Assembly (NCBI GenBank): GCA_002269645.1
Contig: NIVC01000222.1
Location: forward strand, 1 to 64,000
DNA length: 64,000 bases
Reading direction: 5' to 3'
DNA from: Macrostomum lignano
Lineage: Eukaryota
In this document: piece by piece, positions 5,759 to 52,900 of the stretch
Layout of the letters: every line of letters starts with the position of its first letter
How positions within the stretch are numbered: position 1 is the first letter of the stretch
The notes under the pieces: model-generated
What the model was told of the DNA's origin: nothing
Seen by the model: only the letters and a program-made list of their open reading frames with translations
Database searches by the model: none
Position numbers and translations under genes: made by a program

Positions 5759-8700
5759 GTGAGTCTGGGGGGGGCGTCGCCTAGGGGGACTGGGGGGACA
5801 AGGAGGATATGCGAATTTGAGCAGCTTTGAGTACATCTCTTCTTTCACTTTGCCCTTGGGGATTTGAGCAGCTTTGAGTACATCTCTTCTTTCACTTTGC
5901 CCTTGGGGATTTGAGCAGCTTTGAGTACATCTCTTCTTTCACTTTGCCCTTGGGGATTTGAGCAGCTGTGAGTACATCTCTTCTTTCACTTTGCCCTTGG
6001 GGATTTGAGCAGCTGTGAGTACATCTCTTCTTTCACTTTGCCCTTGGGGATTTGAGCAGCTTTGAGTACATCTCTTCTTTCACTTTGCCCTTGGGGACTT
6101 GAGCAGCTGTGAGTACATCTCTTCTTTCACTTTGCCCTTGGGGATTTGAGCAGCTTTGAGTACATCTCTTCTTTCACTTTGCCCTTGGGGATTTGAGCAG
6201 CTTTGAGTACATCTCTTCTTTCACTTTGCCCTTGGGGATTTGAGCAGCTGTGAGTACATCTCTTCTTTCACTTTGCCCTTGGGGATTTGAGCAGCTTTGA
6301 GTACATCTCTTCTTTCACTTTGCCCTTGGGATTTGAGCAGCTGTGAGTACATCTCTTCTTTCACTTTGCCCTTGGGGATTTGAGCAGCTGTGAGTACATC
6401 TCTTCTTTCACTTTGCCCTTGGGGATTTGAGCAGCTTTGAGTACATCTCTTCTTTCACTTTGCCCTTGGGGACTTGAGCAGCTGTGAGTACATCTCTTCT
6501 TTCACTTTGCCCTTGGGGATTTGAGCAGCTTTGAGTACATCTCTTCTTTCACTTTGCCCTTGGGGATTTGAGCAGCTTTGAGTACATCTCTTCTTTCACT
6601 TTGCCCTTGGGGATTTGAGCAGCTGTGAGTACATCTCTTCTTTCACTTTGCCCTTGAGGATTTGAGCAGCTGTGAGTACATCTCTTCTTTCACTTTGCCC
6701 TTGAGGATTTGAGCAGCTGTGAGTACATCTCTTCTTTCACTTTGCCCTTGGGGATTTGAGCAGCTGTGAGTACATCTCTTCTTTCACTTTGCCCTTGGGG
6801 ATTTGAGCAGCTGTGAGTACATCTCTTCTTTCAATCTTGCTTGGGAAATTGAGCAACTTTTTTTTACTTAATTTCTGTAGAAGAAGAACTCAAAGGCTTG
6901 GCCATCACCCCCACAATTCGCATTCAACAGCTAATCAGCAGTGAGGTGTTGCAGACCTGGGAATGGGTGACTCGGCTCGCCGAGCTGACCCAGCTGCACC
7001 TGAAGAACTCGGCAGATTATCACTCGTTCTACCACGACGCCAACGAGCTGGACGGACTGATCAACTCGCGAAAGCTGACTAACGCTCAAGTCTTTGGTTC
7101 GATTCCGCCAACAGGACAGCTGAGCTCTATGCAGCGGATGAACACGGTCTTGAGTGTGAGTTTCTAACGTGGAGATTGATGCGACTGTAAAGTGGCCAAA
7201 GTCCAAGGATTCGGGAGGATCTTCCAAGGATACATAATAACTGTAGGACTGGAAAGTAGCAAATCATGGCACCAGGGGCTTTAGCATCAGGGGCTTTAGC
7301 ACCACGGGCTTTAGCACCAGGGGCTTTAGCACCAGGGGCTTTAGCACCAGGGGCTTTAGCACCAGGGGCTCTAGCACCAGGGGCTTTAGCACCAGGGCTT
7401 TAGCACCAGGGGCTTTAGCACCACGGGCTTTAGCACCAGGGGATTTAGCACCAGGGCTTTAGCACCAGGGGCTTTAGCACCAGGGGCTTTAGCACCAGGG
7501 GCTTTAGCACCAGGGGCTTTAGCACCACGGGCTTTAGCACCACGGGCTTTAGCACCACGGGCTTTAGCACCAGGGGATTTAGCACCAGGGGCTTTAGCAC
7601 CACGGGCTTTAGCACCAGGGGCTTTAGCACCAGGGGCTTTAGCACCAGGGGCTTTAGCACCAGGGGCTTTAGCACCAGGGGCTTTAGCACCAGGGGCTTT
7701 AGCACCAGGGGCTTTAGCACCAGGGGCTTTAGCACCAGGGGCTTTAGCACCAGGGGCTTTAGCACCAGGGGCTTTAGCACTAAATGTTTGTGCAATATAG
7801 CATATAAAAAGTATTGAACAGTTATGGAAGTAAAAAATGTTATTATTTTTTCTCCCTATTTTGCAGGACAATTTTTCGAATTTCCTCATGCTATGGCAGC
7901 GAGCTGACCAGCTCGTGTCGCGCAGTCATCGAATTGTCCCGGTTTACCGGCGCAATCAACCGCTGGAGACGCCTCATCCGGGACGTAACATCTTCCGGTT
8001 TGATGACGGAGAGGTGAGAGTGCCATTTGTCGGAGAGTGTTTAGTAGTGTCGGAGAGTGTTTAGTAGTGTCGGAGAGTGTTTAGTAGTGTCGGAGAGTGT
8101 TTAGTAGTGCCGGAGGGTGTTTAGTAGTGTCGGAGACTGTTTAGTAGTGTCGGAGAGTGTTAATTATTGTCGGTGGTGTTTAGTAGTGTTGGAGTGTGTT
8201 TAGTAGTGTCGGAGAGTGTTTAGTAGTGTCGGAGAGTGTTTAGTAGTGTCGGAGAGTGTTTAGTAGTGTCGGAGAGTGTTTATTACTGTCGGAGAGTTTT
8301 TAAGAATATCGTCGAATGAATTCACTGTTAAAATATTCGATGATGTTTCATAATGTCCTGTAATAAGATTCGAAGAAGGCATGTAGTATCGTACAAGTAT
8401 TTATCTTGTAGGAGAATGTTTACACTGTATGAGTGTTTATACGAGAGTAAATGTAGTCTTTATAAGTTTACAAGAGTTTTTTCTGTAAACTCCAACGTTC
8501 GTTCGTCCTACAGAACACGTTGCTGGATTCGGAAGAAGTCGCGGTCCTTGACAATACGAAGCCATTGACCTGGAAGGTGCGAAAAACTGACGGCACAGTG
8601 ATGGAGGTGCCCAGCATCTGCATCTGGCTGCCGCCACCCGACACAGAGTCTGGGGAAGTGGCTCTCGTGTAAGTGACCTCGGTGATTTGCTCAGATCAGC

Positions 8701-31962: not shown

Positions 31963-34900
31963 GTGCGAAATACTTAAATAGTGCTTCGTTCAAAATCCAC
32001 TCACAAGCTTGACAAGTTTCGAAAAGTACGAGGTATTATTGTAAAGTTACAAAGCTCAAAGCCCAGAAAGAATACACTTGAGAGATGCAAAAATTCAAAT
32101 TTCGCCATAAAAATTTGCTTTATTGCCGCGGTGGTAGCATATCATAAAAACTGGCTTGTTGAACTTGCAAAAAAGCCTGAGCAAAGCACAGAACTACAAG
32201 TAGTGATGACTAGAAAGTCAGGGTCGCATTGAATATATCGATTTTTAGGACAAAAACCATGCAATAGCTTACATAAGATAACTCCGGTGCTCAGGTGTAT
32301 GATAAATCATTAATTTTTCTTTAACTATTCCCCAAAACGTCACTTCCCAGACTTTCTTTTTACTATATAAGAGCTATCAATCCTGCAAAGCGTTTGCTTA
32401 AACCCAAAACTTCAGCAACTCAGCAACGAGGTGTCGCAGACCTGGGAATGGGTGACTCGGCTCGGCGAGCTGACCCAGCTGCACCTGAAGAATTCGGCGG
32501 ATTATCAATGGTTCTATCACGAAGCCAACGAGCTAGAAGAGGTGATCAACTCGCGAAATCTGGCTAACGCTCAAGTCGTTGGTTCGATTCCGCCAACAGG
32601 ACAGCTGAGCTCTATGCAGCGAATGAACACGGTCTTGAGTGTGAGTTTCTTCTGTGATTGCGGAAAAATGCAGGGGATAAATGGGATTAAATTGGATTTC
32701 GTGTCAAAGCGTCGGCAGGCAAATACAGTGGAGGAACGCAGAGGAAGACCAACGGGCCGCTGTCCCTCCATAACTAACTTTTGCCATCTGTTGGATGTGG
32801 CATACGAGCTGCACTGGCCCAGAAGACAGTGGCAGGGGCGCCCACGAAGACACTGTATATCGCAGCGCCCTTTAGGGGTTGCGGCCTCCTCCAATGCTCA
32901 TGGTCCAGCGAAAAAAGACAAGAAATATTCACAGAAGGGTTGTGAGTACGAAATCCTCTCACAACCAGAGTTGAGGCACGCCCTCGTGCACACGGGCTCA
33001 CAAAGGGTGTACAAGCAGCCCTTTGACTTTCTTACCTTCAGGCATGTACAACACTCTCTGTTGGGGGTTGGCCCTGATGGGTGAGAATCCAATAAATAAC
33101 TTTACCATCCACAGTCCTCATCATTATACGTCGGAAACCTTTTTACCTCCACTTGCAATGATGACTTGTAATAGGTGTACTGGTATCAAGGCGTGAAACC
33201 TAAAAAATATTTCTCTTTTCTTCAGGACAACTACTCACAGCTGCTGCTGCTGTCACAGCGCACCGACCAGCTGATGTCGAAGAGTCACAGCGTGGTGCCG
33301 CTGTACCGCCGCTGCCAGCCAGTGGATGTTGGCTATCCGGCCAGAAATATTTTCCGTTTCGACGATGGAGAGGTTTGCTTGCTTATGCGTATCTGGGGTC
33401 TGCAGTGTGGGGTCTGCAGTGTGGGGTCTGCAATCTTGGGTCTGCAGTGTGACGTCTGCAGTGTGAGGTCTGCAGTTGGGGTCTGCAGTTGAGGTCTGCA
33501 ATGTGGGGTCTGCAGTGTGGGGTCTGCAATCTTGGGTCTGCAGTGTGACGTCTGCAGTGGGGGGTCTGCAGTGTGGGGTCTGCAATGTGACGTCTGCAGT
33601 GTGGGGTCTGCAGTGTGGGGTCTGCAATGTGACGTCTGCAGTGGGGGGTCTGCAGTGTGGGGTCTGCAATGTGACGTCTGCAGTGTGGGGTCTGCAGTGT
33701 GGGGTCTGCAATGTTGGTCTGCAGTGGGATATGCATGTTCCGATGTTCACTTACTATGCATCCTATGCTCACTGATGCATCCTATGCTCACTATGCATCT
33801 TATGCTCACTATGCATCTTATGCTCACTATGCATCTTATGCTCACTATGCATCCTATGCTCACTATGCATCCTATGCTCACTATGCATCGTATGCTCACT
33901 ATGCATTCTATGCTCACTATGCATTCTATGCTCACTGATTCATTCTATGCTCACTGATTCATTCTATGCTCACTATGCATCTTATGCTCACTATGCATCC
34001 TATGCTCACTATGCATCCTATGCTCACTGATGCATCCTATGCTCACTATGCATTCTATTCTCTCCCACCAGAACACTCTGAACGACTCCGAGGAGGTGAC
34101 AATACTGGACAACTCAAACTCATTCAACTGGAAGGTGGCCAAGGCCGATGGAACAGTGATGGAGGTGCCCAGCATCTGCATCTGGCTGCCGCCGCCAGAC
34201 ACTGAGGCTGTTGAAGTGGCTGTCGTGTAAGTGAGCTTTTCCCCACTGATTCCCGCACAAATTTTGCATGCTTATGTTGTGCCCGGGTGCGCTTGCACCG
34301 ATGAGCAATCTCTGGCTCTCGGTCAAGTGCGCCCGGCACTGCACTCCCACCCCTCCTGGCCGCGTGCCTGCGCCACCCCCCCATTCTGTTTGTGTCAGCC
34401 CCCCCCATTTCTGCCTGCGCTAACCCCCCCCCTCCCCAGTTGTGTATCAGCTCTTATGCTCTGCCCCTTTTCTTTATGCGTACCCAGCCGGATTGGCTGG
34501 TCTGGGCCCTCTCTCCCCCTTTTGTTAGCCCTTGTCAATTGGTGATTGGCCAATAAGTTGGGTTTTGATAATGCTGTCTGGCGTGAGACCCTAGGGCTTA
34601 CGCCAGGCAGTCCAAATAAATAGAGAATTGCTGGCGGTGGGCAGGGCGAGCGCGCTTGTTGACGCCTGACACTAGACTACTCTTCAGAACCTACAAACTT
34701 CAACAGCAAGAATCTCAGTTCTACAAATTGACGAATTCGCTGCCTTGCCCATCGTCGAGCAGATTGGAAATCAAAGTAAGACCTGCGCCTGCATTCATTA
34801 CTCATTTGGGCTTCGTGCGAAGTGGGTACTGTACACCTCAGGGACGGACTGACTACCCTACCTCGACGCGACCCCACGCTCAGTTACGGAGTCAGTCCGG

Positions 34901-37900
34901 TCAGTGGGCTGACGCCATCTCCAGGCTCGATCACTGCAGAGCGTTCTTAGGGGGCTGTTTCGATCACGTGTAGTGACACAACACTGGTGCCGTGACCAGG
35001 ATTTAGGAGTTTAGTTTACTGTAACCTGGGTTGTACGTTTATTTGTTAGCAGCTTGCGCGCCTCTTAGATCTATGCACTGTTAGTCTGTCTCCTTCTCTA
35101 TCCCAGTCAATCTCTTAGTCTTTTCTTCCTGAAGTTGTCTTTCGAATCCCGATGGCCAACGTTGACGACCTCATCAATGCGCTTACAGCTAGAGTGCAGA
35201 ATAATTTGAACGTAGGGCAAAGAGTGCCCCGACCATCCAAGTTTGTGCTGAGTCAGGATTTTGCTCTGTGGATGCAGCAGTTTACAGCGTATTGTGAGGC
35301 TGCAGAAATCCCCGAGGAAGATAGGAAGCAGCACCTACTTAGTATGATGGACTTCAACTCAGCTTACCGAGCCATTGCCAACCTTGAGTTACCGGACGAT
35401 CTAGAGTTTGACGATTTTGTTGAGCGCCTTTCACAGCGGTTTAATCAGCATCACACCCCACAGGACAGTAAGATCGAACTGAGGGGTCGGGACCAGAAGA
35501 AGGATGAATCTGTGGAAGATTATGCCGACGCTCTTCGAGAAATTGTCCGCCGGGCCTACCCAAACCTGCCGGTAGAACAGAGAGATGAGCTAGCAAGAGA
35601 CCGGTTCCTGCTAGGTGCCAGAATCGCCGATAGAATTCGTGAACACTTGCTATTGGAGGAACCGGGTACCCTCGACGCAGCTTGTAGGCGTGTAAGACAG
35701 GGTATGGCATCCCTCCGCACAGCTCAATCGAGCACTGAGAAACCTTGGCCCTCAGCGAACGTATCCGCAAGTAACACGCAAGATGAGGCAGTCAGGCTCC
35801 GCGAAGAGCTGAAAGAACTGAGGGCGGAGCTGCAAGTCCTGAAGGCTGGATCGGGAACTGGAGTCCGCTATCATAAGCACCCTAATCCCCAACCTGCCCA
35901 GGCTGCAGCACCAGCTCAGAGAACTTTCCAGTGTGGTCGCTGCCTCGAGACCACCCACACGACCCAGCAATGCAGAAATCCTATAGTTTGCAATTACTGC
36001 AACCGGTCCGGTCACAAACGGGCTAGGTGTTTTAAACTGCAGAGAGACCAGCAGCAGACGGGAAACGGTCAGGGGACCTGGAGGCAGGGCCGCCCAGGCA
36101 CCCACCCGAACCAGCAGTAGAGGCCCAACCCAGCGCACCGAGCCAACCCGCACAAGGTACAGAACTTGGTTTTGTTGATGTGATATTTGAAGGCAGAACA
36201 AGTAGTATGGCATGTTTGCTAGATTCCGGCTCGAGTATCTCACTGTTAAGTGAAGCCGCGTGGAAGAGGAACTCGAATCGAGCCGTGTTGAAGCCAAGCT
36301 ACATAGGAGAGAGTATTCAAGTTGCAAATGGCGATGTCATAAATGTGCTGGGTGAGTGCGTTGGGGAATTTTCGATTGGCTCGCATAGATTTTGCCACAC
36401 CTTTGTCGTCGTCTCACACATACTGCATCACTGCATCCTTGGTGCAGATTTTTTCCGTTGCCAAGCAGCCAAATTGGATTTAGCGAACCTTCAGATCGTC
36501 ACTTCAGTAGGAACTTTTCCTTTTCGTATGACTTCTGAGCGACCCATCCTCTGCCGGATAGTCATTTCGAAATCGGAAACAGTTCCTGCAAATCGGTCTC
36601 AAATCATTCGAGCTAAGCTGAGTCGGAGAGGAGTGAAGGAATTTCGGTTCTTAGGAATGGCAGAGACCCGCTCCCAGACTGAAGGCCACGTGATGCTGGC
36701 TAGGTCAGTTGTCGTACCCTCTGCTGACGGTTCCGTCCCTGTCAAGATCACCAATGTGTCGGGAGAACCTGTAGTACTAACAAAAGGGAAGCAGATTGGC
36801 TGGTTCTCGCCCGTCCATGACAGCCAACCAAATCACGATCAAGAACCCAAAGCACAAGTTAACCGGGTTTCTCTCGACAAAGACTGGGATCCTGTAAAGC
36901 ATCTGGGCAGTTGGGACTCGCCGGACTTGTCCGAAGACCAGCAGGTGTCGTTCATAAAGTTGATCCGTCAGAACAGAGATTTCTTCGCCAAGGACGATAG
37001 CGAGCTGGGTTCAACGGACCAGGCAATGCATACCATAGACACCGGGGACGCCAGGCCAACTAGAGAACCACCACGCCGCATCCCACCGCACATAAGGCCA
37101 GAAATCGATAAAGAAATTGACAGGCTAATAGACTGCGGTAGGATCTACGAGTGTCAATCCCCGTGGGTCAGCCCGGTCGTACCTGTGCGGAAGAAGGACG
37201 GATCCATCAGGCTGTGCCTGGATTATCGCCGACTAAATGAAGTAACCAATCCTGACCCATTTCCGCCGCCGCGAATGGATGAAACCTTAGAAGCACTTGC
37301 AGGAAATGCTATTTTTTCAACTCTAGACTTGGCTTCAGGCTATCACCAGTGCCCGCTAGATCCTAAAGATCAACTTAAGACGGCATTCGTAGTTCCAAAT
37401 AGAGGTCAGTTCGCCTGGCGATATGTGAGTTTTGGGCTAAGAAATGCCCCTGCGACTTTCGTCAAGCTGATGAACCTTGTTATGGCTGGTCTGACATGGA
37501 GAGAGTGTCTTGTATATTTTGACGATATAATAGTTTTTTCAAAGTCCTACGAAGAGCATTTTGAGCGGCTCCAGCATGTTTTCGATCGCTTACGAACTGC
37601 TGGGATCCGCTTGAAAGCCAAGAAATGCCATTTTCTGTCCAAGGAAGCCAAGTTCTTAGGGCACGTCGTATCGTCTGAAGGTATTGCGACAGATCCTGCG
37701 AAGACAGAAGAAATTCGAAACTGGCCCACACCCAAGAATATAAAAGAACTGCAGTCATTTTTGGGCCTCTGCTCCTACTACAGAAATTTCGTGAATGACT
37801 TCTCAATAAAGGCAGCCGCGTTGTTCAAGCTCATGCGCAAGGACTCACAGTATATTTGGGGCCCAGAGCAACAGCAGGCGTTTTCCGAACTCAAGCAATC

Positions 37901-40900
37901 GCTAACATCAGCGGAGATCATGGCCTATCCAGACTTTTCCGAAGGAGCTGGACCGTTTGTGCTGGACACCGACGCCAGCTCGAAGATTGGGATCGGTGCA
38001 GTCTTGTCGCAATGCCAACCCGATGGGTCAGAGCGCGTCATTGCCTATGGATCCAGGTCGCTAGCAGATTGTGAAAGGAACTACTGCACTACCAGACTTG
38101 AACTCCTAGCGATAGTACACTTCGTAAAGCTGTACAAGTACTATTTGCTGGGAAGGAAATTTAAGATACGGACAGACCATAGCGCTCTTTCGTGGCTGAC
38201 AAGTCTTAAGGACGTCGAGGGGCAATGTGCTAGATGGCTTGAGACGCTGCAGCGTTACGACTTTGAGATCTCGCACAGGAAGGGAATTTTCCATCAGAAT
38301 GCGGACAGTCTGTCTCGTAAAGTTCGAAAGCATTGGGCCCAAGAGTCGTGCCCTTCCTGTAACAGTTCGCCACAAGCACCTGAACAGGTGAACGCTGTGT
38401 TAGCATCACCTCTCAGCGTCAAGTGCATCAGAGAGGCTCAGAGAATTGACCCGGCTCTAAAACGAGTAAGGCAGCTCCTGGAAGGTGAAGCGCTGCAAAA
38501 TGAGCCGATCAGTAGTTTAGTCGAGAGAGAGATCTGGGCCCATAGGACTCGAATAGTCGTAGAAGATGGGCTACTGCTCCTGACAGTGCCGGAGAGCTCA
38601 CAGAAGAGAATCCTCCTTCCGAGTTCCCTGTTTGAGGAAGCCGCCAAAATTCTTCATGATGGCGTCAGTGGATGCCACCTCGGAGTTAAGAAGACTCAAG
38701 GAAAGTTTAAGCAACGCTTTTGGTGGCCTGGTCTGTCTCGGAGAGTTGAAGAGTTCTGCCGAACATGTCTAGTGTGCTCAAAGTGCAAACCATCGCCAAG
38801 AAGCAGGGCACCACTGCAACCCATCCCGAGCTCATTTCCGTTCCAAAGAATCATGTGCGACATCATAGGTCCTTTGCCGAAGTCCAAGCATGGGTCGAGA
38901 TTTGTTTTGACAATCCAAGACGCATTCAGTAAATAGCCGTGTGCAATCCCGTTAACCAATCAGCGTGCCAAAACAGTAGCCCGTGCAATCTTCACGCACT
39001 GGATTTCATCATTCGGTTGTCCACAGGAGATAGTCACTGATCAGGGATCAAACTTTGAGTCAGCATTGATGAAGAACCTTTGTTCTCTGCTAGACATCCG
39101 CAAGTGTCGAACCACTCCATATCATCCGATGGCGGATGGGCAAGCAGAAAGCTTTAATAGGACTCTAAAGCACATGTTAACGTGTCAGTTAGAGCAGGAG
39201 GACAAAGATTGGGAAGACTGCATTGCGCCCGGTTTGCTAGCCTATCGTTCTAGCGTGCATAGAGGCACAGGCTACACTCCGCACTACATTCTGTTTGGTA
39301 GGGAGATGCAGCTCCCGATCGACATTGAGAATCCGACTGAGAGGGTGCCAGAGAGTTTCTCCAAGTTCACTCGTCGACTGGCTGAAGACCTTCAGCAAGC
39401 ACACGAGGCCGTGAGGGAGAATCTCAGAACCTATCAGAGGAAGCAAAAGAAGCTTTATGACAGCCAAGCTCGTGGAGCTCAGATCAATGAAGGTGATCTT
39501 GTTCTAGAATACGATCCCGTCATTAAACCGAATGAAATCCCGAAGTTCCACCGCTATTGGAAAGGCCCGGCCAAAGTCCTGAAAAAATTTTCCGATGTCA
39601 ATTACAGAATCCTGCACGATGGTGCGCGAAGGCCTAGAGTAGTCCATTTCAACAACCTAAGGAAAATCGATGCCAGCTCTAGGTTCCACGTCCCTGCCCA
39701 GAGGAGGACTCAAGCAGCGGCGGGAATCAGGTCACGTGAGCGATATTCCCGCCCGGAAGCTCCTGATCCCCCGATGCCGGTATTTGACTCTGAGCAGAAC
39801 AGTGACGCTGAATTGGAACCAGAGCCCATTTGGGCACAGCGCGTCACACACCATCAGCCTCTTGTAGCCGCTCCTCCCGAGCAAGAATTGAATCGTCGTT
39901 CTGTTCGTGCGAATCGAGGAGTTGCACCACGTCGATTCGGAGACCCAATCCTCTATTAATCTGTACCAATCTGTTTATCAATCGCTCTGGAATGTTTAAT
40001 TCTCACCCTTCTCATCGCGCCTCCAAGTTGCTGAGTACAGTACGGGTTCGTATTTTCATGCAGTTGTAATTGTATTTTGGGCAAGGATGGGCAAGGGTAG
40101 TGGCTGTCGGCGAAGCCGAGTTGGACGTCCAGAATACTGCAATCAGTGTGGAGCAAAAAATGGCAGCCCTGGAGCTACAGGTTCGGCTAGCCAAGAAACG
40201 GGATCTACCCCTCCTGGTTCGTTTGCGAGAGCGTAGACGTAGTCCAGTCGAACCCGGTGGCTCGGCCTGGCACCAGTTCTTACGGTTGCTAGTGGCGTCG
40301 GACTTTGCAAACTGTCGCATTCTAGTTGTCGAATCTTCCGACTGGCCCAAAGACACTCTCAGCCTGTACCTAGCGTCGTTGCCAAGACTGAAATTTGAAG
40401 TCACCGCCCGGGTCGTCAACAGCCGATGGCATGCCCAACGCGTCGCAGCGATACCTTCCGACCGGCTGCTAGTCGCTTCGTCAGCGCCATTCGCGGGAAA
40501 CCCAGGCAAGCCGACTGATGTCCGGAAGGCGGCGGCCTGGCTTGCTGAGGAGCGAAGCGACGGGGCTCTACCTGGTCGACTGGCTGCGGCTGCGCGTGAA
40601 TTTTATAATATTTAACTGTGTGTAAAATGCCAGCTGACAATAACAAATGCTCATGTCGTCATTGCACAGTCCTTCGTCTATGGTATGAACCCTCTTTTCG
40701 TGGAGGGGGAGGGTGTTGTGCCCGGGTGCGCTTGCACCGATGAGCAATCTCTGGCTCTCGGTCAAGTGCGCCCGGCACTGCACTCCCACCCCTCCTGGCC
40801 GCGTGCCTGCGCCACCCCCCCATTCTGTTTGTGTCAGCCCCCCCCCATTTCTGCCTGCGCTAACCCCCCCCCTCCCCAGTTGTGTATCAGCTCTTATGCT

Positions 40901-43900
40901 CTGCCCCTTTTCTTTATGCGTACCCAGCCGGATTGGCTGGTCTGGGCCCTCTCTCCCCCTTTTGTTAGCCCTTGTCAATTGGTGATTGGCCAATAAGTTG
41001 GGTTTTGATAATGCTGTCTGGCGTGAGACCCTAGGGCTTACGCCAGGCAGTCCAAATAAATAGAGAATTGCTGGCGGTGGGCAGGGCGAGCGCGCTTGTT
41101 GACGCCTGACACTAGACTACTCTTCAGAACCTACAAACTTCAACAGCAAGAATCTCAGTTCTACAAATTGACGAATTCGCTGCCTTGCCCATCGTCGAGC
41201 AGATTGGAAATCAAAGTAAGACCTGCGCCTGCATTCATTACTCATTTGGGCTTCGTGCGAAGTGGGTACTGTACACCTCAGGGACGGACTGACTACCCTA
41301 CCTCGACGCGACCCCACGCTCAGTTACGGAGTCAGTCCGGTCAGTGGGCTGACGCCATCTCCAGGCTCGATCACTGCAGAGCGTTCTTAGGGGGCTGTTT
41401 CGATCACGTGTAGTGACACAACACTTACAAACGAATGGTCAACTTCGTATAACTCAAATGTATAAGCTAATAGACTTTGATAGAAAGGATGCAATGAAAG
41501 GAGTCAATCGAAAGAAACATTCGGAAACTTTAGGGACACTAAATTGCTTAGGACAAAAACTCCCGCTAACGAGACGGGACTCTCGGTCTGTAACAGACGA
41601 AGGTTCAATTGTCCTCAGCTGTACTAGAAATGACCGATTATGGGACATTCTACAGGGACTTATTTAGAAGTTTTGTTACTGCTATGATCATTTGGTTGGG
41701 TGGCTCATTCTCGCTGATCTCCCCTCTAATCCTCAGATTCCATATCATGCCCTGCGACAGGCGCACTCTCTACTCACACTTCATAGCACGACTAAGAGCT
41801 ATGGGGGGAGACTGGGCTGATGATACCCAAAAACAGCACAACAGAGGGAAATACCTTAAAGTGCAGACGCGGCCGACGGGCAGGGCTGCTTGGCGCGGTG
41901 GTCGTCGGATTGTGACGGCGGCGGCTGCAGTCACGGACGATTCGGAGGCCTCGGATTGGGGTGGGGTTAGGGGAAGTCGCAAACGATGGGGAAGGACAGT
42001 TAGCGGTGCTTATTGGGATCTGAGGATCTAGGAGCAATCAAAGTATTTTTGGGTAAGAGTCGGTCCAGATAAAAGGTGGGAAAAGCTGCCGATTCGGGTG
42101 CTTTCGGTTTTCAGGAAAGGTTCGGTCTCGCGAGAAAACAGAACAACACAAGGGACTAAAACCCAGCGGACAGAATTTGGGGAAGATGCCGCTCAGGGCT
42201 CAAGACAGGCTCCTATTTATAGCCTTGAGATTATGCGTCACGCAAGGCCGTGACATGTCCTTGACCTCCGTTACCAAGCAACTCTGATGACGTCACCCGC
42301 TAGCCGCGCTATGATTGGACGAGGGGAGCAGCGGAGAAAATTATTGATGATGGGGGATTACGTAACAGGCAGGGAAAAGCTTGGGGAGATATACGCTCGT
42401 AGGGGGTCGTAAAGCTGTCACAACGCATGATTGATTTCGGACGACAGAAAGCAGGTGGGGTTGGTGCTCGGGGGAGCGGGTGAGCGATAAACAAGAGTCA
42501 TCCCAATGAGTCATCCCAATGTGTCATCCCAATGAGTCATCCCAATGAGTCATCCCAATGAGTCGTCCCAGAGTCATCCCAATGAGTCATCCCAAAGAGT
42601 CATCTCAATGAGTCATTCCAATGAGTCAACTCAATGAGTCATTACCAATGATCCATCTCAATGAGTCATCCCAATGAGTCATCACGGGGCACAGGTATCA
42701 CAGAGGAGAAAGGGAGGGTGCGTAAAACTCATTGGAGGCCCAGGGCGCTGCTACATCAAATGTAGTGTTGAGAAGGTTTTGAAATAACTTTCTAAGATAC
42801 GAAGTTTTCCGGTATTTACGGTAACGTTATTATTTTTGGCTAGCTACTGGAGCAATTATTTTTAATAATCAATGACAAGGACTTGAAAGTTAGAAAAGTT
42901 ACTTCCTCTTAATAATTTCTAAAAGTAAATTCTCAAATAATAAATAACTACTTCTTTACTTCGTCACCATTACTAAAATGTTACCAATGGAATGAAATTT
43001 GACTAGGTTGAATGTAAAAAGTATAGTTAATGCATTTTTGGTAGTAAATTTATACTAAAAACGGAGTTATAGGTCGGTTAATAGAACCAAAAATTACCAA
43101 AAAATTGTTAATGATTTTCGTCGAGGTAATTATATTACAAACGATTTTTATTACTTTTAACGGAACGATCTCTATACTTCCGTAGTACCGTTTTTAAATT
43201 GAAACGTTCCTAACGCAGCAAAAACTGTCCGCACTTACCTGCGCATTTCCTCTGGCAAAAAACGTTTCTAGAATTCAACGCAAGCTGCGCAACACGTGGG
43301 CAAGTCTGCTAACCGAAGTTCAGCAGTGGCTGACGCAGTTCTACTCCGACTATTTGCAGAAGCTGCTCAGCAATGACACCGTGGTGAGCTGTTTAACGCT
43401 GACTAAAATCTGTTTCAAACGTAGTTTCTTTTTAACTATAATAAGATTTTATCAGACAGTAAGCTCTTCATTGCACCCTTATAGACTGCGGAGCCATCAG
43501 CTCAGCTGACATTCCTGAACTTTCTCACCCAGCTGGAGGAAGCCCTCAGTGACGGCGTACTGGGAGACGAGGGCCAGCAGCGAAGTCAGCTGGTTGAAGC
43601 GGTTCAAGCCGTTCGAGACCGACTCGTGCTCAGTTGTGAGTTATTCATGCTGATAATTACTTTTCAAATAATCTACCTAACGGGGATGGGCTTTAAGGTA
43701 CCAAAGGACTCCAATAATTCAATCTGAGAATTCAATCAAACTCCAGTTCAAAGAGCACATAAAGAGCCATGGTATTTTCATTGGGGGAGGCATCATTTTA
43801 CAAGTAGTTGAGTGTTCGCCAGCACCAGGGGCTTTAGCACCAGGGACTTTAGCACCAGGGGCTTTAGCACCACGGGCTTTAGCACCAAGGGCTTTAGCAC

Positions 43901-46900
43901 CAGGGGCTTTAGCACCAGGGGCTTTAGCACCAGGGGCTTTAGCACCAGGGGCTTTAGCACCACGGGCTTTAGCACCAGGGGCTTTAGCACCAAGGGGCTT
44001 TAGCACCAGGGGCTTTAGCACCACAAGCTTTAGCACCAAGGGCTTTAGCACCAGGGGCTTTAGCACCAGGGGCTTTAGCACCACGGGCTTTAGCACCAGG
44101 GGCTTTAGCACCACGGGCTTTAGCACCAGGGGCTTTAGCACCAGGGGCTTTAGCACCAGGGGCTTTAGCACCACTTTAGGGCTTTAGCACCAGGGCTTTA
44201 GCTTTTACACTGGAGACTTTTACACGGGCTTTAGAATTCAATGTCCAGGTATTAAAATTCACATAGTCGAGAAAACTTTCTGGTCACTTTCGCAAACTTT
44301 AAGTTTTATAATCTTGAAATTCTAATTCTCTTCAATGCTGTCGAGTTTTGAGCTAGTTTTGAGCTATCAGAAGTTAACGGTGAGCTTTTTCGACTTGCTT
44401 GCTGAAACGCCCCCACCCCGTTTCATCATTGCAGCGCCGGACCAGAGTTCGACGGTTCGCTCGAGCGACGCCGTTCTGCTTCGATCTTTGCTTGAGAAGC
44501 TGCTTGAGCACATGCGAAACTGGAAATGCCTCAACGAGCAGTTGGAATTTTTCAAGCGCGACCACAGCGGGCTAACGGAAGAGTCGGCTCAGATGATGAC
44601 GGCCATTTCTGTCCTACAGTGAGTTCGGGCCAACTCTAGTGGAACTCTTGTGTTGTTGTGATCACGCTCCAGTCTGTTTGTGATCACGCTCCAGTCTGTT
44701 TGTGATCACGCTCCAGTCTGTTAGTGAGCACGCTCCAGTCTGTTTGTGATCACGCTCCAGTCTGTTTGTGAGCACGCTCCAGTCTGTTTGTGAGCACGCT
44801 CCAGTCTGTTTGTGATCACGCTCCAGTCTGTTTGTGAGCACGCTCCAGTCTGTTTGTGAGCACGCTCCAGTCTGTTTGTGAGCACGCTCCAGTCTGTTTG
44901 TGATCACGCTCCAGTCTGTTTGTGAGCACGCTCCAGTCTGTTTGTGAGCACGCTCCAGTCTGTTTGTGAGCACGCTCCAGTCTGTTTGTGAGCACGCTCC
45001 AGTCTGTTTGTGAGCACGCTCCAGTCTGTTTGTGAGCACGCTCCAGTCTGTTTGTGATCACGCTCCAGTCTGTTTGTGAGCACGCTCCAGTCTGTTTGAG
45101 AGCACGCTCCAGTCTGTTCCTGAGAACGCTCTATATACGCTCTTATAAGTAACTTCTCAATGAATTTTGCAGGAAAATGCAGGAAGAAAGTGGCAAACAA
45201 ATGGAAGATCTGCAGACCCGGATGCAGGATTGGAGTCTCTACTCAACTCGTTCGACAGTGGTCAGAAAATCAACAACAGTTAATCAAAGCGTCCAAGTAA
45301 GCAGAAAATTTGACTCAAGTTAAATTTGGATCAGTTTTGCACATCAAAAACTGTTTTTATTACCTACCCATTGATCTACAGCAGCGTGAAAGCCAGTCAC
45401 TAGCAGTGCAAGTCACCGGGAGTTCGCAGACAGACGGTCAATCGGTAACGAACTCGCAGAGAATGGACACCACCGATCTTCTATTCGAAGGTAGAAGAGG
45501 CAGCCTTCGCGACAGTCGCGAGTCTGAGTGGTATTCCCTTCTCGAGTCCAGGCCAGTCGACCTAACCAGCATCCGGGATCTGACAGTCGCCAAGGATCAG
45601 GTCCGCCAGCAGCTCAGACGTGCGTCAATGAGCGAGAGCACGCAGACCAAACCGCCCCCAAGGAGTCCGGTGGGGCTCCTGTCTCCCACTTCGAAATCTG
45701 TGCAGGCCGGTTATTCGGAATATCGACAGAACTCTACTCAGGATATTGAGGATCCAGTATTTCGTCAGGCTGTGTACAACTACATTCAAGAGTACGAGTC
45801 CGAAGTAAAACGCTACCTGCACGAAAATATTCCGAGTCCGATAGTGCACTCTCAGTCCGCGTACGCTGCTGCATCGGCATCTGAGGGCCGATCCCAGCTG
45901 AGAGTTGGCGTCGAAGAAAAGTTAGAGTACTCGGAAACGCGAAAGCTTGCAACGGCATTTCGAGCTCCAATGAAAGCGAAGCGAATGCGACTTCAAGCTC
46001 AGGCTCCGGCACCGGTGCTGCTGTTGGAAAAACCCAAGCAGTCACGCGCGAGGCTGGCTGTCAAACTGCGCAGATACCAATAGCCAGCACAGGTTGCGAT
46101 AAGCAGAGCGTGATGCGGAGAGCAAGATTGCCTGCCACCTGCACTATACTGTGCAGAATGATCTGTTCTGTCTAGAAATAGAAAGCAGCGACTCAGAGAC
46201 TCAAACAGATCAGTCTGGCCAAACAGTGGAGACGGAAGAGAAACTCATTAAGTACGAAAGCCGGGTTGATGAGAGAGTCGAAAGACAAAGCGTAGACATC
46301 GAGATAAAAATCGAAGAGGAGACAAACCGTAAAAAGCTCATGGCAACTCAACCACCGAGAAAAGTAGAAGTTCAAGATGCCTGCGTAAAAACGACCTGTG
46401 AAACAGAGGAATCGGTTTTAGTTGTTAAGCAACAAATAAAATATATGCAACTGTCTCAGGAGCTAGTCACTGCCGACCAGGGAGTCAACTGCGTAATCGA
46501 AAACCAACTTTCAGATTTTGAGTGTTCATTTGACCTGGAATTTGCGGATAGCAGTGTAAATTGCAAAACTGAAGAAAAAACTCAGGAAATCAGCACTTGC
46601 GAAGTGCACTATGAGAACCACTTTAGTGAAGCCGCACTTCAAACAGATTCTTTCACAGGCGAAAGCAGCATCTCCGTAAGCCCAAAACTTGCGTGCATGA
46701 GCGTTGAAATGGAAATTTCAACCGAAGATGCGTCTGTTTTATGCAAAGATGAGACAAAAATTCGAGAGTGTTTCTCCCACTTAGAAAAATCTTATAAGGA
46801 AAGCAACACCAAAGCACAGATAACAACGAAAGACGTTTCTGTAACAGCCAAACAAGCCGTTAGCAAACTGGGATTTGCTGAAGAAATGCAAAAAATCAAA

Positions 46901-49900
46901 GCAGTTAACAGCAACGTAAAATTCAGTAACATGCCGAAAATTCTAGAGTGCAACAGCTCGCTTGAACTTATGCACGAAAATGCTGGTGCACGAGCACAGC
47001 CGACCGTAGATGAGATGGGCGTCTGTGAGCAAGTTATGTTCTCTGATGGTGCCATGAGATTCAAGGACGAACCGCAGGTCGAAGAGTGCACCAGCTCGCT
47101 TGAGTTGTTGGTCAAGTCAGGCTTCGTTCGTACGAAAACTAAAGTCCAAGAAGCTTCTGTGCAAGTCAATCAAGAAGTCGGAGAGATTGGCGTATACAAC
47201 GAGGTACTAAGCGCGAGCGAACACGTAAGATTCAAGGACGAACCGAAAGTTGAAGAGTGCGCCAGCTCGCATGAGCTTATACACAAAACGACTGGTGTGC
47301 GAGCACAGCCAACCGTGGATGAGATGGGCGCTTATGAGACGCTGCTCGCATCAGACGCTTCGGTACGCTACAAGGAAGAGCCGAAACTCGACGAGTGCTT
47401 CACATTCTCCGAGACCACATTCCTGGAAGGCGCTATCCGAGTAGAGACACTTGTGAAGGAGGCTTCAGTTCAAGTGGAACAGCCAGTCGATGGAATGGGC
47501 GTCTGTGAGATGCTGCTCACATCAGACGGGTCGGTACGCTATAAGGAAGAGCCGAAACTCGACGAGTGCTTCACATTCTCCGAGACCACATTCCTGGAAG
47601 GCGCTATCCGAGTAGAGACACTTGTGAAAGAGGCTTCAGTTCAAGTGGAACAGCCAGTCAATGGAATGGGCGTCTGTGAGATGCTGCTCACATCAGACGG
47701 GTCGGTACGCTACAAGGAAGAGCCGAAGCTCAACGAATGCGCCTCATTCCTGGAAACGACTGTCTTGAGTGAGTCCATTCGAGTAAGCCAGAGTGTGAAC
47801 GAAATGGGCTTCTGTGAGATGTTGGAGACATCAGACACGACAATGCGCTACAAAGAAGAGCTAGAAGTGAGAGACTGCGCATCGTCCTCGAGACATCCGT
47901 CATGATAGGATCTGTTCGAGTGAAACAAGAAATAGACGACATGGGCGTCTGTGAGATGCTGCTCACATCAGACGCTTCGGTACGCTACAAGGAAGAGCCG
48001 AAACTCGACGAGTGCTTCACATTCTCCGAGACCACATTCCTGGAAGGCGCTAGAGTAGAGACACTTGTGAAGGAGGCTTCAGTTCAAGTGGAACAGTCAG
48101 TCGATGGAATGGGCGTCTGTGAGATGCTGCTCACATCAGACGGGTCGGTACGCTACAAGGAAGAGCCGAAACTCGACGAGTGCTTCACATTCTCCGAGAC
48201 CACATTCCTGGAAGGCGCTATCCGAGTAGAGACACTTGTGAAGGAGGCTTCAGTTCAAGTGGAACAGTCAGTCGATGGAATGGGCGTCTGTGAGATGCTG
48301 CTCACATCAGACGGGTCGGTACGCTACAAGGAAGAGCCGAAGCTCAACGAATGCGCCTCCTTCCTGGAAACGACTGTCTTGAGTGAGTCCATTCGAGTAA
48401 GCCAGAGTGTGAACGAAATGGGCTTCTGTGAGATGTTGGAGACATCAGACACGACAATGCGCTACAAAGAAGAGCTAGAAGTGAGAGACTGCGCATCGTT
48501 CCTCGAGACATCCGTCATGATAGGATCTGTTCGAGTGACACAAGAAATAGACGACATGGGCGTCTGTGAGATGCTGCTCACATCAGACGCTTCGGTACGC
48601 TACAAGGAAGAGCCGAAACTCGACGAGTGCTTCACATTCTCCGAGACCACATTCCTGGAAGGCGCTATCCGAGTAGAGACACTTGTGAAGGAGGCTTCAG
48701 TTCAAGTGGAACAGCCAGTCGATGGAATGGGCGTCTGTGAGATGCTGCTCACATCAGACGGGTCGGTACGCTACAAGAAAGAGCCGAAACTCGACGAGTG
48801 CTTCACATTCTCCGAGACCACATTCCTGGAAGGCGCTATCCGAGTAGAGACACTTGTGAAGGAGGCTTCAGTTCAAGTGGAACAGTCAGTCGATGAAATG
48901 GGCGTCTGTGAGATGCTGCTCACATCAGACGGGTCGGTACGCTACAAGGAAGAGCCGAAACTCGACGAGTGCTTCACATTCTCCGAGACCACATTCCTGG
49001 AAGGCGCTATCCGAGTAGAGACACTTGTGAAGGAGGCTTCAGTTCAAGTGGAACAGTCAGTCGATGGAATGGGCGTCTGTGAGATGCTGCTCACATCAGA
49101 CGGGTCGGTACGCTACAAGGAAGAGCCGAAACTCGACGAGTGCTTCACATTCTCCGAGACCACATTCCTGGAAGGCGCTATCCGAGTAGAGACACTTGTG
49201 AAGGAGGCTTCAGTTCAAGTGGAACAGTCAGTCGATGGAATGGGCGTCTGTGAGATGCTGCTCACATCAGACGGGTCGGTACGCTACAAGGAAGAGCCGA
49301 AACTCGACGAGTGCTTCACATTCTCCGAGACCACATTCCTGGAAGGCGCTATCCGAGTAGAGACCCTTGTGAAGGAGGCTTCAGTTCAAGTGGAACAGTC
49401 AGTCGATGGAATGGGCGTCTGTGAGATGCTGCAGACATCAGTCGGGTCGGTACGCTACAAGGAAGAGCTTGAAGTAAGAGAGTGCGCATCCTTCCTCGAG
49501 ACTTCGGTCATGGTCGGCTCCGTTCGAGCGAAACAGGATGTGGAGGACATGGGCGTCTGTGAGATGCTGCAGACATCAGTCGGGTCGGTACGCTACAAGG
49601 AAGAGCTTGAAGTAAGAGAGTGCGCATCCTTCCTCGAGACTTCGGTCATGGTCGGCTCCGTTCGAGCGAAACAGGATGTGGAGGACATGGGCGTCTGTGA
49701 GATGCTGCAGACATCGGACTCGACAATGCGCTACAAAGAAGAGCTAGAAGTGAGAGAATGCGCTTCGTTCCTTGAGACATCCTTCATGGTCGGCTCCGTT
49801 CGAGCGAAACAGGATGTGGAGGACATGGGCGTCTGTGAGATGCTGCAGACATCAGTCGGGTCGGTACGCTACAAGGAAGAGCTTGAAGTAAGAGAGTGCG

Positions 49901-52900
49901 CATCCTTCCTCGAGACTTCGGTCATGGTCGGCTCCGTTCGAGCGAAACAAGAAGTAGACGGCATGGGCGTCTGTGAGATGCTGCAGACATCGGACTCGAC
50001 AATGCGCTACAAAGAAGAGCTAGAAGTGAGAGAATGCGCTTCGTTCCTTGAGACATCCTTCATGGTCGGCTCCGTTCGAGCGAAACAGGATGTGGAGGAC
50101 ATGGGCGTCTGTGAGATGCTGCAGACATCAGTCGGGTCGGTACGCTACAAGGAAGAGCTTGAAGTAAGAGAGTGCGCATCCTTCCTCGAGACTTCGGTCA
50201 TGGTCGGCTCCGTTCGAGCGAAACAAGAAGTAGACGGCATGGGCGTCTGTGAGATGCTGCAGACATCGGACTCGACAATGCGCTACAAAGAAGAGCTAGA
50301 AGTGAGAGAATGCGCTTCGTTCCTTGAGACATCCTTCATGGTCGGCTCCGTTCGAGCGAAACAGGATGTGGAGGACATGGGCGTCTGTGAGATGCTGCAG
50401 ACATCAGTCGGGTCGGTACGCTACAAGGAAGAGCTTGAAGTAAGAGAGTGCGCATCCTTCCTCGAGACTTCGGTCATGGTCGGCTCCGTTCGAGCGAAAC
50501 AAGAAGTAGACGGCATGGGCGTCTGTGAGATGCTGCAGACATCGGACTCGACAATGCGCTACAAAGAAGAGCTAGAAGTGAGAGAATGCGCTTCGTTCCT
50601 TGAGACATCCTTCATGGTCGGCTCCGTTCGAGCGAAACAGGATGTGGAGGACATGGGCGTCTGTGAGATGCTGCAGACATCAGTCGGGTCGGTACGCTAC
50701 AAGGAAGAGCTTGAAGTAAGAGAGTGCGCATCCTTCCTCGAGACTTCGGTCATGGTCGGCTCCGTTCGAGCGAAACAAGAAGTAGACGGCATGGGCGTCT
50801 GTGAGATGCTGCAGACATCGGACTCGACAATGCGCTACAAAGAAGAGCTAGAAGTGAGAGAATGCGCTTCGTTCCTTGAGACATCCTTCATGGTCGGCTC
50901 CGTTCGAGCGAAACAGGATGTGGAGGACATGGGCGTCTGTGAGATGCTGCAGACATCAGTCGGGTCGGTACGCTACAAGGAAGAGCTTGAAGTAAGAGAG
51001 TGCGCATCCTTCCTCGAGACTTCGGTCATGGTCGGCTCCGTTCGAGCGAAACAAGAAGTAGACGGCATGGGCGTCTGTGAGATGCTGCAGACATCGGACT
51101 CGACAATGCGCTACAAAGAAGAGCTAGAAGTGAGAGAATGCGCTTCGTTCCTTGAGACATCCTTCATGGTCGGCTCCGTTCGAGCGAAACAGGATGTGGA
51201 GGACATGGGCGTCTGTGAGATGCTGCAGACATCGGACTCGACGCGCTACAAAGGAAGAGCTTGAAGTGAGAGTGCGCATCCTTCCTCGAGACTTCGGTCA
51301 TGGTCGGCTCCGTTCGAGCGAAACAGGATGTGAGGCATGGGCGTCTGTGAGATGCTGCAGACATCAGTCGGGTCGACGCTACAAGAAGAGCTTGAAGTAG
51401 AGAGTGCGCTCGTTCCTCGAGACTTCCTCATGGTCGGCTCCGTTCGAGCGAAACAGGATGTGGAGGACATGGGCGTCTGTGAGATGCTGCAGACATCGGA
51501 CTCGACAATGCGCTACAAAGAAGAGCTAGAAGTGAGAGAATGCGCTTCGTTCCTTGAGACATCCTTCATGGTCGGCTCCGTTCGAGCGAAACAGGATGTG
51601 GAGGACATGGGCGTCTGTGAGATGCTGCAGACATCAGTCGGGTCGGTACGCTACAAGAAGAGCTTGAAGTAAGAGAGTGCGCATCCTTCCTCGAGACTTC
51701 GGTCATGGTCGGCTCCGTTCGAGCGAAACAGGATGTGGAGGACATGGGCGTCTGTGAGATGCTGCAGACATCGGACTCGACAATGCGCTACAAAGAAGAG
51801 CTAGAAGTGAGAGAATGCGCTTCGTTCCTTGAGACATCCTTCATGGTCGGCTCCGTTCGAGCGAAACAGGATGTGGAGGACATGGGCGTCTGTGAGATGC
51901 TGCAGACATCAGTCGGGTCGACGCGCTACAAGAAGAGCTTGAAGTAAGAGAGTGCGCATCGTTCCTTGAGACTCCTCATGGTCGGCTCCGTTCGAGCGAA
52001 ACAGGATGTGGAGGACATGGGCGTCTGTGAGATGCTGCAGACATCACTCGACGCGCTACAAAGAAGAGCTAGAAGTGAGAGAATGCGCTTCGTTCCTTGA
52101 GACTCCTTCATGGTCGGCTCCGTTCGAGCGAAACAGGATGTGGAGGACATGGGCGTCTGTGAGATGCTGCAGACATCAGTCGGACGACGCTACAAAGAAG
52201 AGCTTGAAGTGAGAGTGCGCTCCTTCCTCGAGACTTCGGTCATGGTCGGCTCCGTTCGAGCGAAACAGGATGTGGAGGACATGGGCGTCTGTGAGATGCT
52301 GCAGACATCGGACTCGACAATGCGCTACAAAGAAGAGCTAGAAGTGAGAGAATGCGCTTCGTTCCTTGAGACATCCTTCATGGTCGGCTCCGTTCGAGCG
52401 AAACAGGATGTGGAGGACATGGGCGTCTGTGAGATGCTGCAGACATCGGACTCGACAATGCGCTACAAGAAGAGCTGAAGTGAGAGAATGCGCTTCGTTC
52501 CTTGAGACATCCTTCATGGTCGGCTCCGTTCGAGCGAAACAGGATGTGGAGGACATGGGCGTCTGTGAGATGCTGCAGACATCGGACTCGACAATGCGCT
52601 ACAAGAAGAGCTAGAAGTGAGAGAATGCGCTTCGTTCCTTGAGACATCCTTCATGGTCGGCTCCGTTCGAGCGAAACAGGATGTGGAGGACATGGGCGTC
52701 TGTGAGATGCTGCAGACATCAGTCGGGTCGGTACGCTACAAGAAGAGCTTGAAGTAAGAGAGTGCGCATCCTTCCTCGAGACTTCGTCATGGTCGGCTCC
52801 GTTCGAGCGAAACAGGATGTGGAGGACATGGGCGTCTGTGAGATGCTGCAGACATCGGACTCGACAATGCGCTACAAAGAAGAGCTAGAAGTGAGAGAAT

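Follow-up and report, generated by a model that had tools for sequence, protein, structure and literature searches.

The described elements closest in organization to the one reported here are the bdelloid long terminal repeat (LTR) elements Juno and Vesta, which carry a third open reading frame (ORF3) with DEDDy exonuclease and GDSL esterase domains, typically expressed from spliced messages (PMC5408684). Host domains captured by other LTR elements include AlkB in orchid Ty3/Gypsy (PMC9289625), MBD in arthropod Copia (PMC6673714), and CERV of Cer1 (PMC10309623), likewise accessory proteins or domains that handle host RNA or chromatin control. The subject of this work is a complete, very young Ty3/Gypsy element at positions 34275–41423 of a 64,000-nucleotide stretch of the Macrostomum lignano contig NIVC01000222.1 (hereafter, the window), together with its relatives in the same genome, whose ORF3 joins a J-domain, an acidic linker, a helical domain, and a TatD domain. 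Like the bdelloid ORF3s, this is a non-env, family-specific gene located between pol and the 3' LTR that includes a captured nuclease. Unlike in them, the nuclease is a predicted TatD TIM barrel instead of a DEDDy exonuclease, its catalytic residues are mostly replaced, whereas those of the bdelloid enzymes are intact, and it is joined to a J-domain, which the bdelloid proteins lack (neither TatD nor DnaJ occurs in PMC5408684). The AlkB, MBD, and CERV cases involve other domains, none described with a J-domain scaffold in the text covered. The capture of a non-env ORF3 is already known, and the J-domain/TatD cargo would be a variant of it for which no description was found.

A preliminary description of this DNA had interpreted a 181-codon stop-to-stop frame (40070–40615), located past the pol stop (39959) and before the polypurine tract and 3' LTR, as a TatD-like gene of the element. 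Relative to the undeleted copy L033, 1,215 bases are missing from the window between 40078 and 40087, with 8 bases in their place; gone with them are the ORF3 start codon, both the J-domain and the helical domain, and the first part of the TatD barrel. The frame is almost certainly the 3' remnant of a selected ORF3 of around 560 amino acids. The gene unit proposed at first was wrong, since the cargo is the fused J-domain/helical/TatD protein and the window copy holds only a decapitated remnant of it. What stood from that description is that the frame lies inside a complete element with near-identical LTRs (their sole difference is one 1-base indel, and CTTA is duplicated at the target) and that a Gypsy lineage took up TatD and retained it, though altered, as supported by fold, selection, and presence in three subfamilies; the 181 codons themselves are not the gene. 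The features of the window copy are as follows.

34271..34274, + strand: left target-site duplication, CTTA
34275..34983, + strand: 5' LTR, TG...CA, 709 bases, without a heat-shock element
34985..35002, + strand: primer-binding site
35152..36120, + strand: gag, PNMA/Retrotrans_gag-like capsid and zinc knuckle
36036..39959, + strand: pol in the Ty3/Gypsy order protease, reverse transcriptase (RT), RNase H, integrase, overlapping gag in a different frame
38934–38936: in-frame stop inside the integrase of the window copy
39960..40078, + strand: non-coding spacer before ORF3, with 97–98% identity to undeleted copies
40061..40063, + strand: predicted splice acceptor (pyrimidine tract and CAG) for a putative ORF3 message
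40079..40086, + strand: deletion junction with an 8-base filler that repeats 40089–40096
40087..40615, + strand: remnant of the ORF3 TatD-like domain, from the GE strand to the C-terminus
40700..40713, + strand: polypurine tract
40714..41423, + strand: 3' LTR, 710 bases
41424..41427, + strand: right target-site duplication, CTTA

The TG...CA LTRs, target-site duplication, primer-binding site (presumably tRNA-His-like), polypurine tract, and pol order identify the element as Ty3/Gypsy. The integrase stop at 38934–38936 had gone unmentioned in the preliminary description, and its position is open in other copies of the subfamily. Templated fillers at deletion junctions, such as the one found here, are typical of end-joining repair. 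The same deletion is common to four independent insertions (the window, L031, L032, and L041; L044 and L048 have the flanks of the window and were not counted separately), and L032 retains an open pol of 1,307 codons. An assembly artefact is therefore excluded, and the lineage kept moving in spite of the deletion; ORF3 is demonstrably dispensable in cis.

That the 181-codon frame encodes a small working cargo protein of its own, perhaps lengthened by translation across the TAA at 40067–40069, is very improbable. In its favour, the frame is open in three of the four independent deleted insertions, the predicted acceptor is retained, and an in-frame ATG at 40160 could yield 151 residues. This ATG, the first in frame downstream of the TAA, is codon 31 and lies beyond the GE motif, and its product would lack the GE strand and around half of the barrel; the original start codon is gone, and the first ATG past the acceptor (40087) is out of frame. 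The upstream NSHPSH stretch, which had been likened to the TatD G.HP motif, lies with the TAA in the spacer, and in undeleted copies the same DNA precedes the ORF3 start codon. The upstream frame shows no TatD match, and the true position of the motif reads GLRA/GLKA, so that both the motif and the continuation past the TAA were discarded. Finally, copies with the deletion diverge by 1–2%, with 4–10 differences per copy, which are too few to gauge selection on the remnant, and, given how recent the deletion is, an open frame is no sign of selection.

A search of the genome with the flagged frame gave 41 matches from 47 candidates, both counts being lower bounds, in three bands of identity to the window frame: A (91–99%), B (around 56–67%), and C (33–35%). 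Many of the matches belong to far longer frames, in which Pfam DnaJ is found together with TatD. From 35 regions retrieved around the matches for ORF3 architecture, complete relatives showed an ORF3 of around 560 amino acids between the integrase and the 3' LTR, made up of J-domain, acidic linker, helical domain, and TatD. Family C was represented by 12 insertions with both LTRs and differing flanks; its ORF3 frame of at least 571 codons was open in 10 of 17 regions and its pol frame of at least 1,290 codons in 4 of 17, with similar break rates per length. ORF3 was also absent or truncated in L046/L042, L106, and the L087 family. Copy L087 (6175–6915, in element orientation), like L088, L095, L097, and L105, presented around 1.2 kb of differing sequence between pol and the LTR, with frames of about 200–250 codons that include neither J nor TatD. 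Two copies of subfamily B, L039 and L040, showed a frame change at one and the same spot, after the J-domain and before the helical domain, and GC-rich tandem arrays were located in the 3' non-coding region, downstream of ORF3 or pol and ahead of the 3' LTR, in L091/L092/L121, L098–L101, L106, and L122. The closely matching database proteins are automatic Macrostomum lignano gene models annotated as 'J domain-containing protein' or 'hypothetical protein'.

Purifying selection acts on the full ORF3, in each of its three domains. In the A–B comparison, the 245 codons of the TatD domain showed proportions of synonymous and nonsynonymous differences (pS and pN) of 0.67 and 0.20, which correspond to a ratio of nonsynonymous to synonymous rates (dN/dS) of about 0.14 (P 2e-32), and the ratio was 0.10 for the J-domain and 0.08 for the helical domain. 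Within family C, the whole ORF3 gave dN/dS of 0.28–0.33 (P<=5e-5); for comparison, values for RT were 0.04–0.16 between subfamilies and among C copies. The retention of ORF3 in relatives and the constraint on TatD bear out the view of the preliminary description that a TatD was captured and kept; it had proposed to look for both in other copies. That TatD is a neutral passenger is hardly credible: it would fit the repeated losses and breaks in A/B copies, but it is largely refuted by a pN far under pS over the whole domain and by the collinear conservation of TatD between A/B and C, at around 35% identity.

A clade-wide J-domain ORF3 with interchangeable domains, which is not visible from the window alone, emerged from the sampling of more distant families. 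An integrase search (150 scored from 3,727 candidates), together with a J-region search, provided 36 further regions, around one or two per family; the J profile matched in 21 of them and TatD in two, both from family C. In five families with 44–52% integrase identity, ORF3 consisted of a J-domain with HPDK, an acidic linker, and the same helical domain, without TatD. Their matches to Pfam DnaJ (PF00226) had E values of 1e-12 to 6e-18 and 48–65 bits, and those of A (48.9 bits) and B (61.6 bits) were also over the cut-off of 27.8. The HPD motif is present in subfamilies A and B and in the TatD-less families, with one B copy reading HPDE, and the window copy has no J-domain. One TatD-less family carries a chromodomain inserted in ORF3 (Chromo E 1e-12), at two loci.

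L102, 2691–3674, - strand: ORF3 with J-domain, chromodomain, and helical domain
L111, 6324–7307, + strand: ORF3 with J-domain, chromodomain, and helical domain

By eye, the third aromatic cage position of this chromodomain looks replaced by Val. The chromodomain of L102/L111 bears on the possibility that ORF3 steers integration by tethering the pre-integration complex to particular chromatin or DNA structures, with the chromodomain and the TatD barrel as alternative targeting modules, which we regard as improbable. Known targeting chromodomains are fused to integrase, whereas here the chromodomain stands in a separate ORF, and tethering needs no J-domain. On the other hand, ORF3 contains basic runs that may be nuclear signals, and LTR elements are known to carry chromodomains as accessory domains (PMC6338049).

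All TatD carriers fell in one 26-row clade of the RT tree (43 rows, 7 excluded for short matches; support 100/99), nested in a group of 39 rows (93/92) to which the five J-only families also belong, and a quick integrase tree (48 rows, 2 excluded) recovered the same 26-row clade. This clade also contains the L087 family, sister to C, with other sequence there and neither J nor TatD; L106 is likewise without J. The simplest reading of these sequences would be an old ORF3 of J and helical domains, one gain of TatD, and several losses. The ORF3-less outgroup L104 lies outside the J-bearing clade, in a tree built without Gmr1/Osvaldo reference RTs. As for the helical domain, it was modelled with a predicted local distance difference test score (pLDDT) of 86 and gave no Foldseek match at E<=0.001; its best VIA Z of 8.1 over 78 residues is in the range of common helical bundles, and its PDB profile matches were mainly designed proteins. 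Partial J-domain matches were also seen in L107–L109, with no gag or pol seen nearby and, by eye, a Walker-A frame near L107 and a recombinase-like frame near L109. The pol of the window, compared with L035–L040, has an RT near subfamily B (dS 0.14) and a saturated integrase, the opposite being seen against L037; these mosaic distances point to recombination between subfamilies.

The likeness to TatD noticed at first was confirmed. The window frame matched Pfam TatD_DNase (PF01026) with E 1e-6 and 28.8 bits, above the cut-off of 27, and all five PDB sequence matches at E<=10 were TatD proteins, the best being YjjV (E 0.004). Subfamilies A and B scored 35.3 and 31.9 bits, over the same cut-off, and C scored 23.2, under it. 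The predicted model of the full family-C ORF3 had a mean pLDDT of 63, under 50 at the barrel front and mostly 80–93 from residue 390 on. At E<=0.001 it gave 15 Foldseek matches, led by TatD structures; those listed, 14 in number, were all TatD-family proteins or an uncharacterised metalloprotein, with E values of 7e-5 to 6e-4 for TatD structures; J-domain structures appeared at E 0.02–0.04. According to this model, the family-C ORF3 has the TatD TIM-barrel fold, a result that concerns the full protein, as the window remnant has no barrel front. A search with PADLOC gave a single weak QatD match (E 0.001).

The active site is extensively altered. At the HxH site, A and B read DAHAF, keeping one His, C reads DAKAY, keeping none, and the site was lost by deletion in the window; at the G-HP site, undeleted copies read GLRA or GLKA, with Arg or Lys instead of His. 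The two central His sites hold Arg/Gln and Glu (Arg and Glu in the window), and the ETD site reads ASS, TSA, or ASG, having lost its Asp (ASS in the window). In sum, A, B, and C all carry substitutions at five positions (second HxH His, G-HP His, the two central His, ETD Asp). The GE Glu shows no variation over the 8 aligned rows, and a second invariant Glu occupies a His ligand site. By the motifs of active TatDs, the GE Glu is present and the HxH or (G/A)xN, the central His, and the ETD Asp are not. The initial assignment of ligands was right for the GE Glu, the ASS, and the Arg at the first central His; the second, given as V/E, reads Glu. Compared with the HxH-group TatDs (E. coli YcfH/YjjV and human TATDN2/3), the element domain shares the fold, the Pfam family, the GE Glu, and, in A/B, one HxH His (PMC10085689); it differs from them in the replacement of the second HxH His, the G-HP His, the central His, and the ETD Asp, in its fusion behind J and helical domains, and in its long branch.

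From these residues, the TatD module is probably a non-catalytic binder, and an altered nuclease is the less probable alternative. The 'dead' nuclease of the preliminary description is accordingly likely, with the reservation that the GE Glu, on which human TATDN1 depends, does not vary in these elements. The same residues bear on the possibility that ORF3 is a replication helper acting in or on the particle, in which a Glu-based nuclease or end-binding activity would trim or shield cDNA ends, abasic sites, or RNA:DNA hybrids, with Hsp70 employed through the J-domain in capsid assembly or uncoating. This is rather unlikely, although the two invariant Glu residues would fit it, as would the finding that the GE Glu was the only residue human TATDN1 could not lose, exonuclease activity being retained when a single His or Asp was mutated (PMC10085689), and the bdelloid DEDDy ORF3s keep intact catalytic residues (PMC5408684). 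Against it, five ligand or substrate residues are altered together, and in the HxH-type TATDN3 the Asp matters 30-fold (PMC10085689); the five sister families without TatD, one of them with a chromodomain, point to chromatin rather than particle chemistry, and deleted copies keep spreading.

The origin of the module was approached by a TatD tree, whose prokaryotic rows were chosen by the same profile and whose host rows are single exons; the element group sits on a long branch that names no donor. The genome's own TATDN1-like and TATDN3-like genes retain the ligands in the exons seen. The element TatD may resemble metazoan TATDN2, of which no gene was found in this genome. The proteins P0148 and P0149 present TatD fused to an RNA 3'-terminal phosphate cyclase, P0149 being labelled an oomycete protein.

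Neither sequence nor hydropathy supported an env-like nature. No env Pfam match was found in the ORF3 frames, and no hydrophobic env-like helix was seen in 8 of 9 of them, with 19-residue Kyte-Doolittle maxima of 1.1–1.5; the exception was the tail of L091, at 2.1. Regarding expression, in each of the 7 families inspected a YAG precedes the ORF3 ATG by no more than 17 bases, and contigs of three sequencing runs guessed to be RNA and of one other run showed no splice joint, contigs being unable to show its absence. A link to heat-shock induction was rejected for the families sampled, as no three-unit heat-shock element (with up to one mismatch) was found in 14 LTRs of TatD carriers. Over 14 further regions, a perfect element was present only in the ORF3-less L104, and one near match was located in L102, at the edge of the scanned region. 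The L104 element, in an LTR of around 340 bases (~6093–6433), matches by eye, in LTR length and heat-shock motif, the published Mlig-id38, a heat-induced family of the Gmr1/Osvaldo cluster (PMC12801592).

Our reading, held with confidence a little short of even, is that ORF3 is a trans-acting anti-silencing accessory protein that would bring Hsp70 to targets chosen by the likely non-catalytic TatD module. Anti-silencing as its job, drawn by analogy, is tentative and on the doubtful side of even. ORF3 would be made from a spliced subgenomic RNA, and the added module would dock it in the nucleus on element RNA, DNA, or chromatin, the TatD barrel serving for nucleic-acid ends or hybrids and the chromodomain for methylated histone tails; the J-domain would recruit Hsp70, by which host repressor complexes might be remodelled or stripped. 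Action in the nucleus is suggested by the basic runs, the lack of a membrane helix, and the chromodomain as an alternative module, and action in trans would explain that deleted copies such as that of the window still spread.

Polyomavirus T antigens also present an N-terminal J-domain followed by target-binding modules, and they aim Hsp70 at host complexes. ORF3 is alike in its J-domain-first layout and differs in that family C lacks HPD and that the LxCxE motif is absent from the six TatD-less ORF3s scanned. A T-antigen-like platform, in which J and helical domains with swapped target-reading modules would aim Hsp70 at silencing complexes while deleted copies freeload in trans, is possible and rather doubtful. 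VANC21 of VANDAL21 is a transposon-encoded, trans-acting suppressor of silencing, and SILENZIO is a J-protein found with HSP70 at the chromatin of transposable elements in plant silencing (PMC8616336); the former is a factor of a plant DNA transposon and the latter a host repressor, so that they offer an analogy only.

Several observations weigh against this anti-silencing reading. The whole ORF3 frame was found in none of the A/B copies retrieved, and synonymous divergence (dS) in the A–B comparison approaches saturation, which makes the 0.14 and the other A–B ratios rough. Within family C, the signal for TatD alone is weak (dN/dS 0.36–0.41, P ~0.04). The main difficulty is that family C has KRPRV in the place of HPD and a DnaJ score of 18.3 bits against the cut-off of 27.8; as it is the most numerous young TatD family, stimulation of Hsp70 cannot be the whole job, and its J-like region is still conserved despite the loss of HPD. 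Lastly, the invariant GE Glu and the Glu at a His ligand site make residual nuclease activity possible.

No description of a TatD or J-domain cargo in LTR elements was found in the literature searched by titles, starts of abstracts, and term counts, with Repbase, Dfam, GyDB, and an earlier M. lignano classification paper outside the search. The parts covered of the M. lignano LTR survey PMC12801592, including a word search of five supplements, do not mention TatD, and the DnaJ row examined among its 13 occurrences is a host transcript. Word searches of PMC6338049, PMC8775202, and PMC13524379 gave neither TatD nor DnaJ. Outside relatives were sought in 1.84 billion representatives, with 14 matches: three labelled M. 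lignano, P0004, and others that are ordinary TatD or DnaJ proteins. P0004 is 51% identical to family C, and the genome holds no match to it over 52%; it represents a further lineage, absent from this assembly, and shows that the TatD lineage exists elsewhere. Word-index searches returned only ordinary TatDs or M. lignano entries, no outside relative was found in metagenome and viral contigs, and the Atlas was blank for the full ORF3 protein, giving TatD clusters for the TatD domain alone.

Regarding the surroundings of the element, a host exon at 34066–34230, around 45 bases upstream of it, encodes an SH3_10 domain (E 2e-10), presumably of plakin type, and the element apparently sits in an intron of this gene. 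From ~46900–50000 onward, the window contains a long array of 138/171-base coding-like repeats, with a composition steady to ~63000, which is possibly a giant repeat exon.

Accessory proteins of retrotransposons whose job is known are few, and counter-silencing factors of animal retroelements are rare. The ORF3 group offers natural variants with TatD, with a chromodomain, with neither, without HPD, and deleted, in Macrostomum lignano, a model organism open to RNAi and transgenesis whose piRNA pathway has been described, where the role of ORF3 would be directly testable. In addition, a naturally selected TatD pseudo-enzyme may reveal what the barrel binds when it is not cutting.

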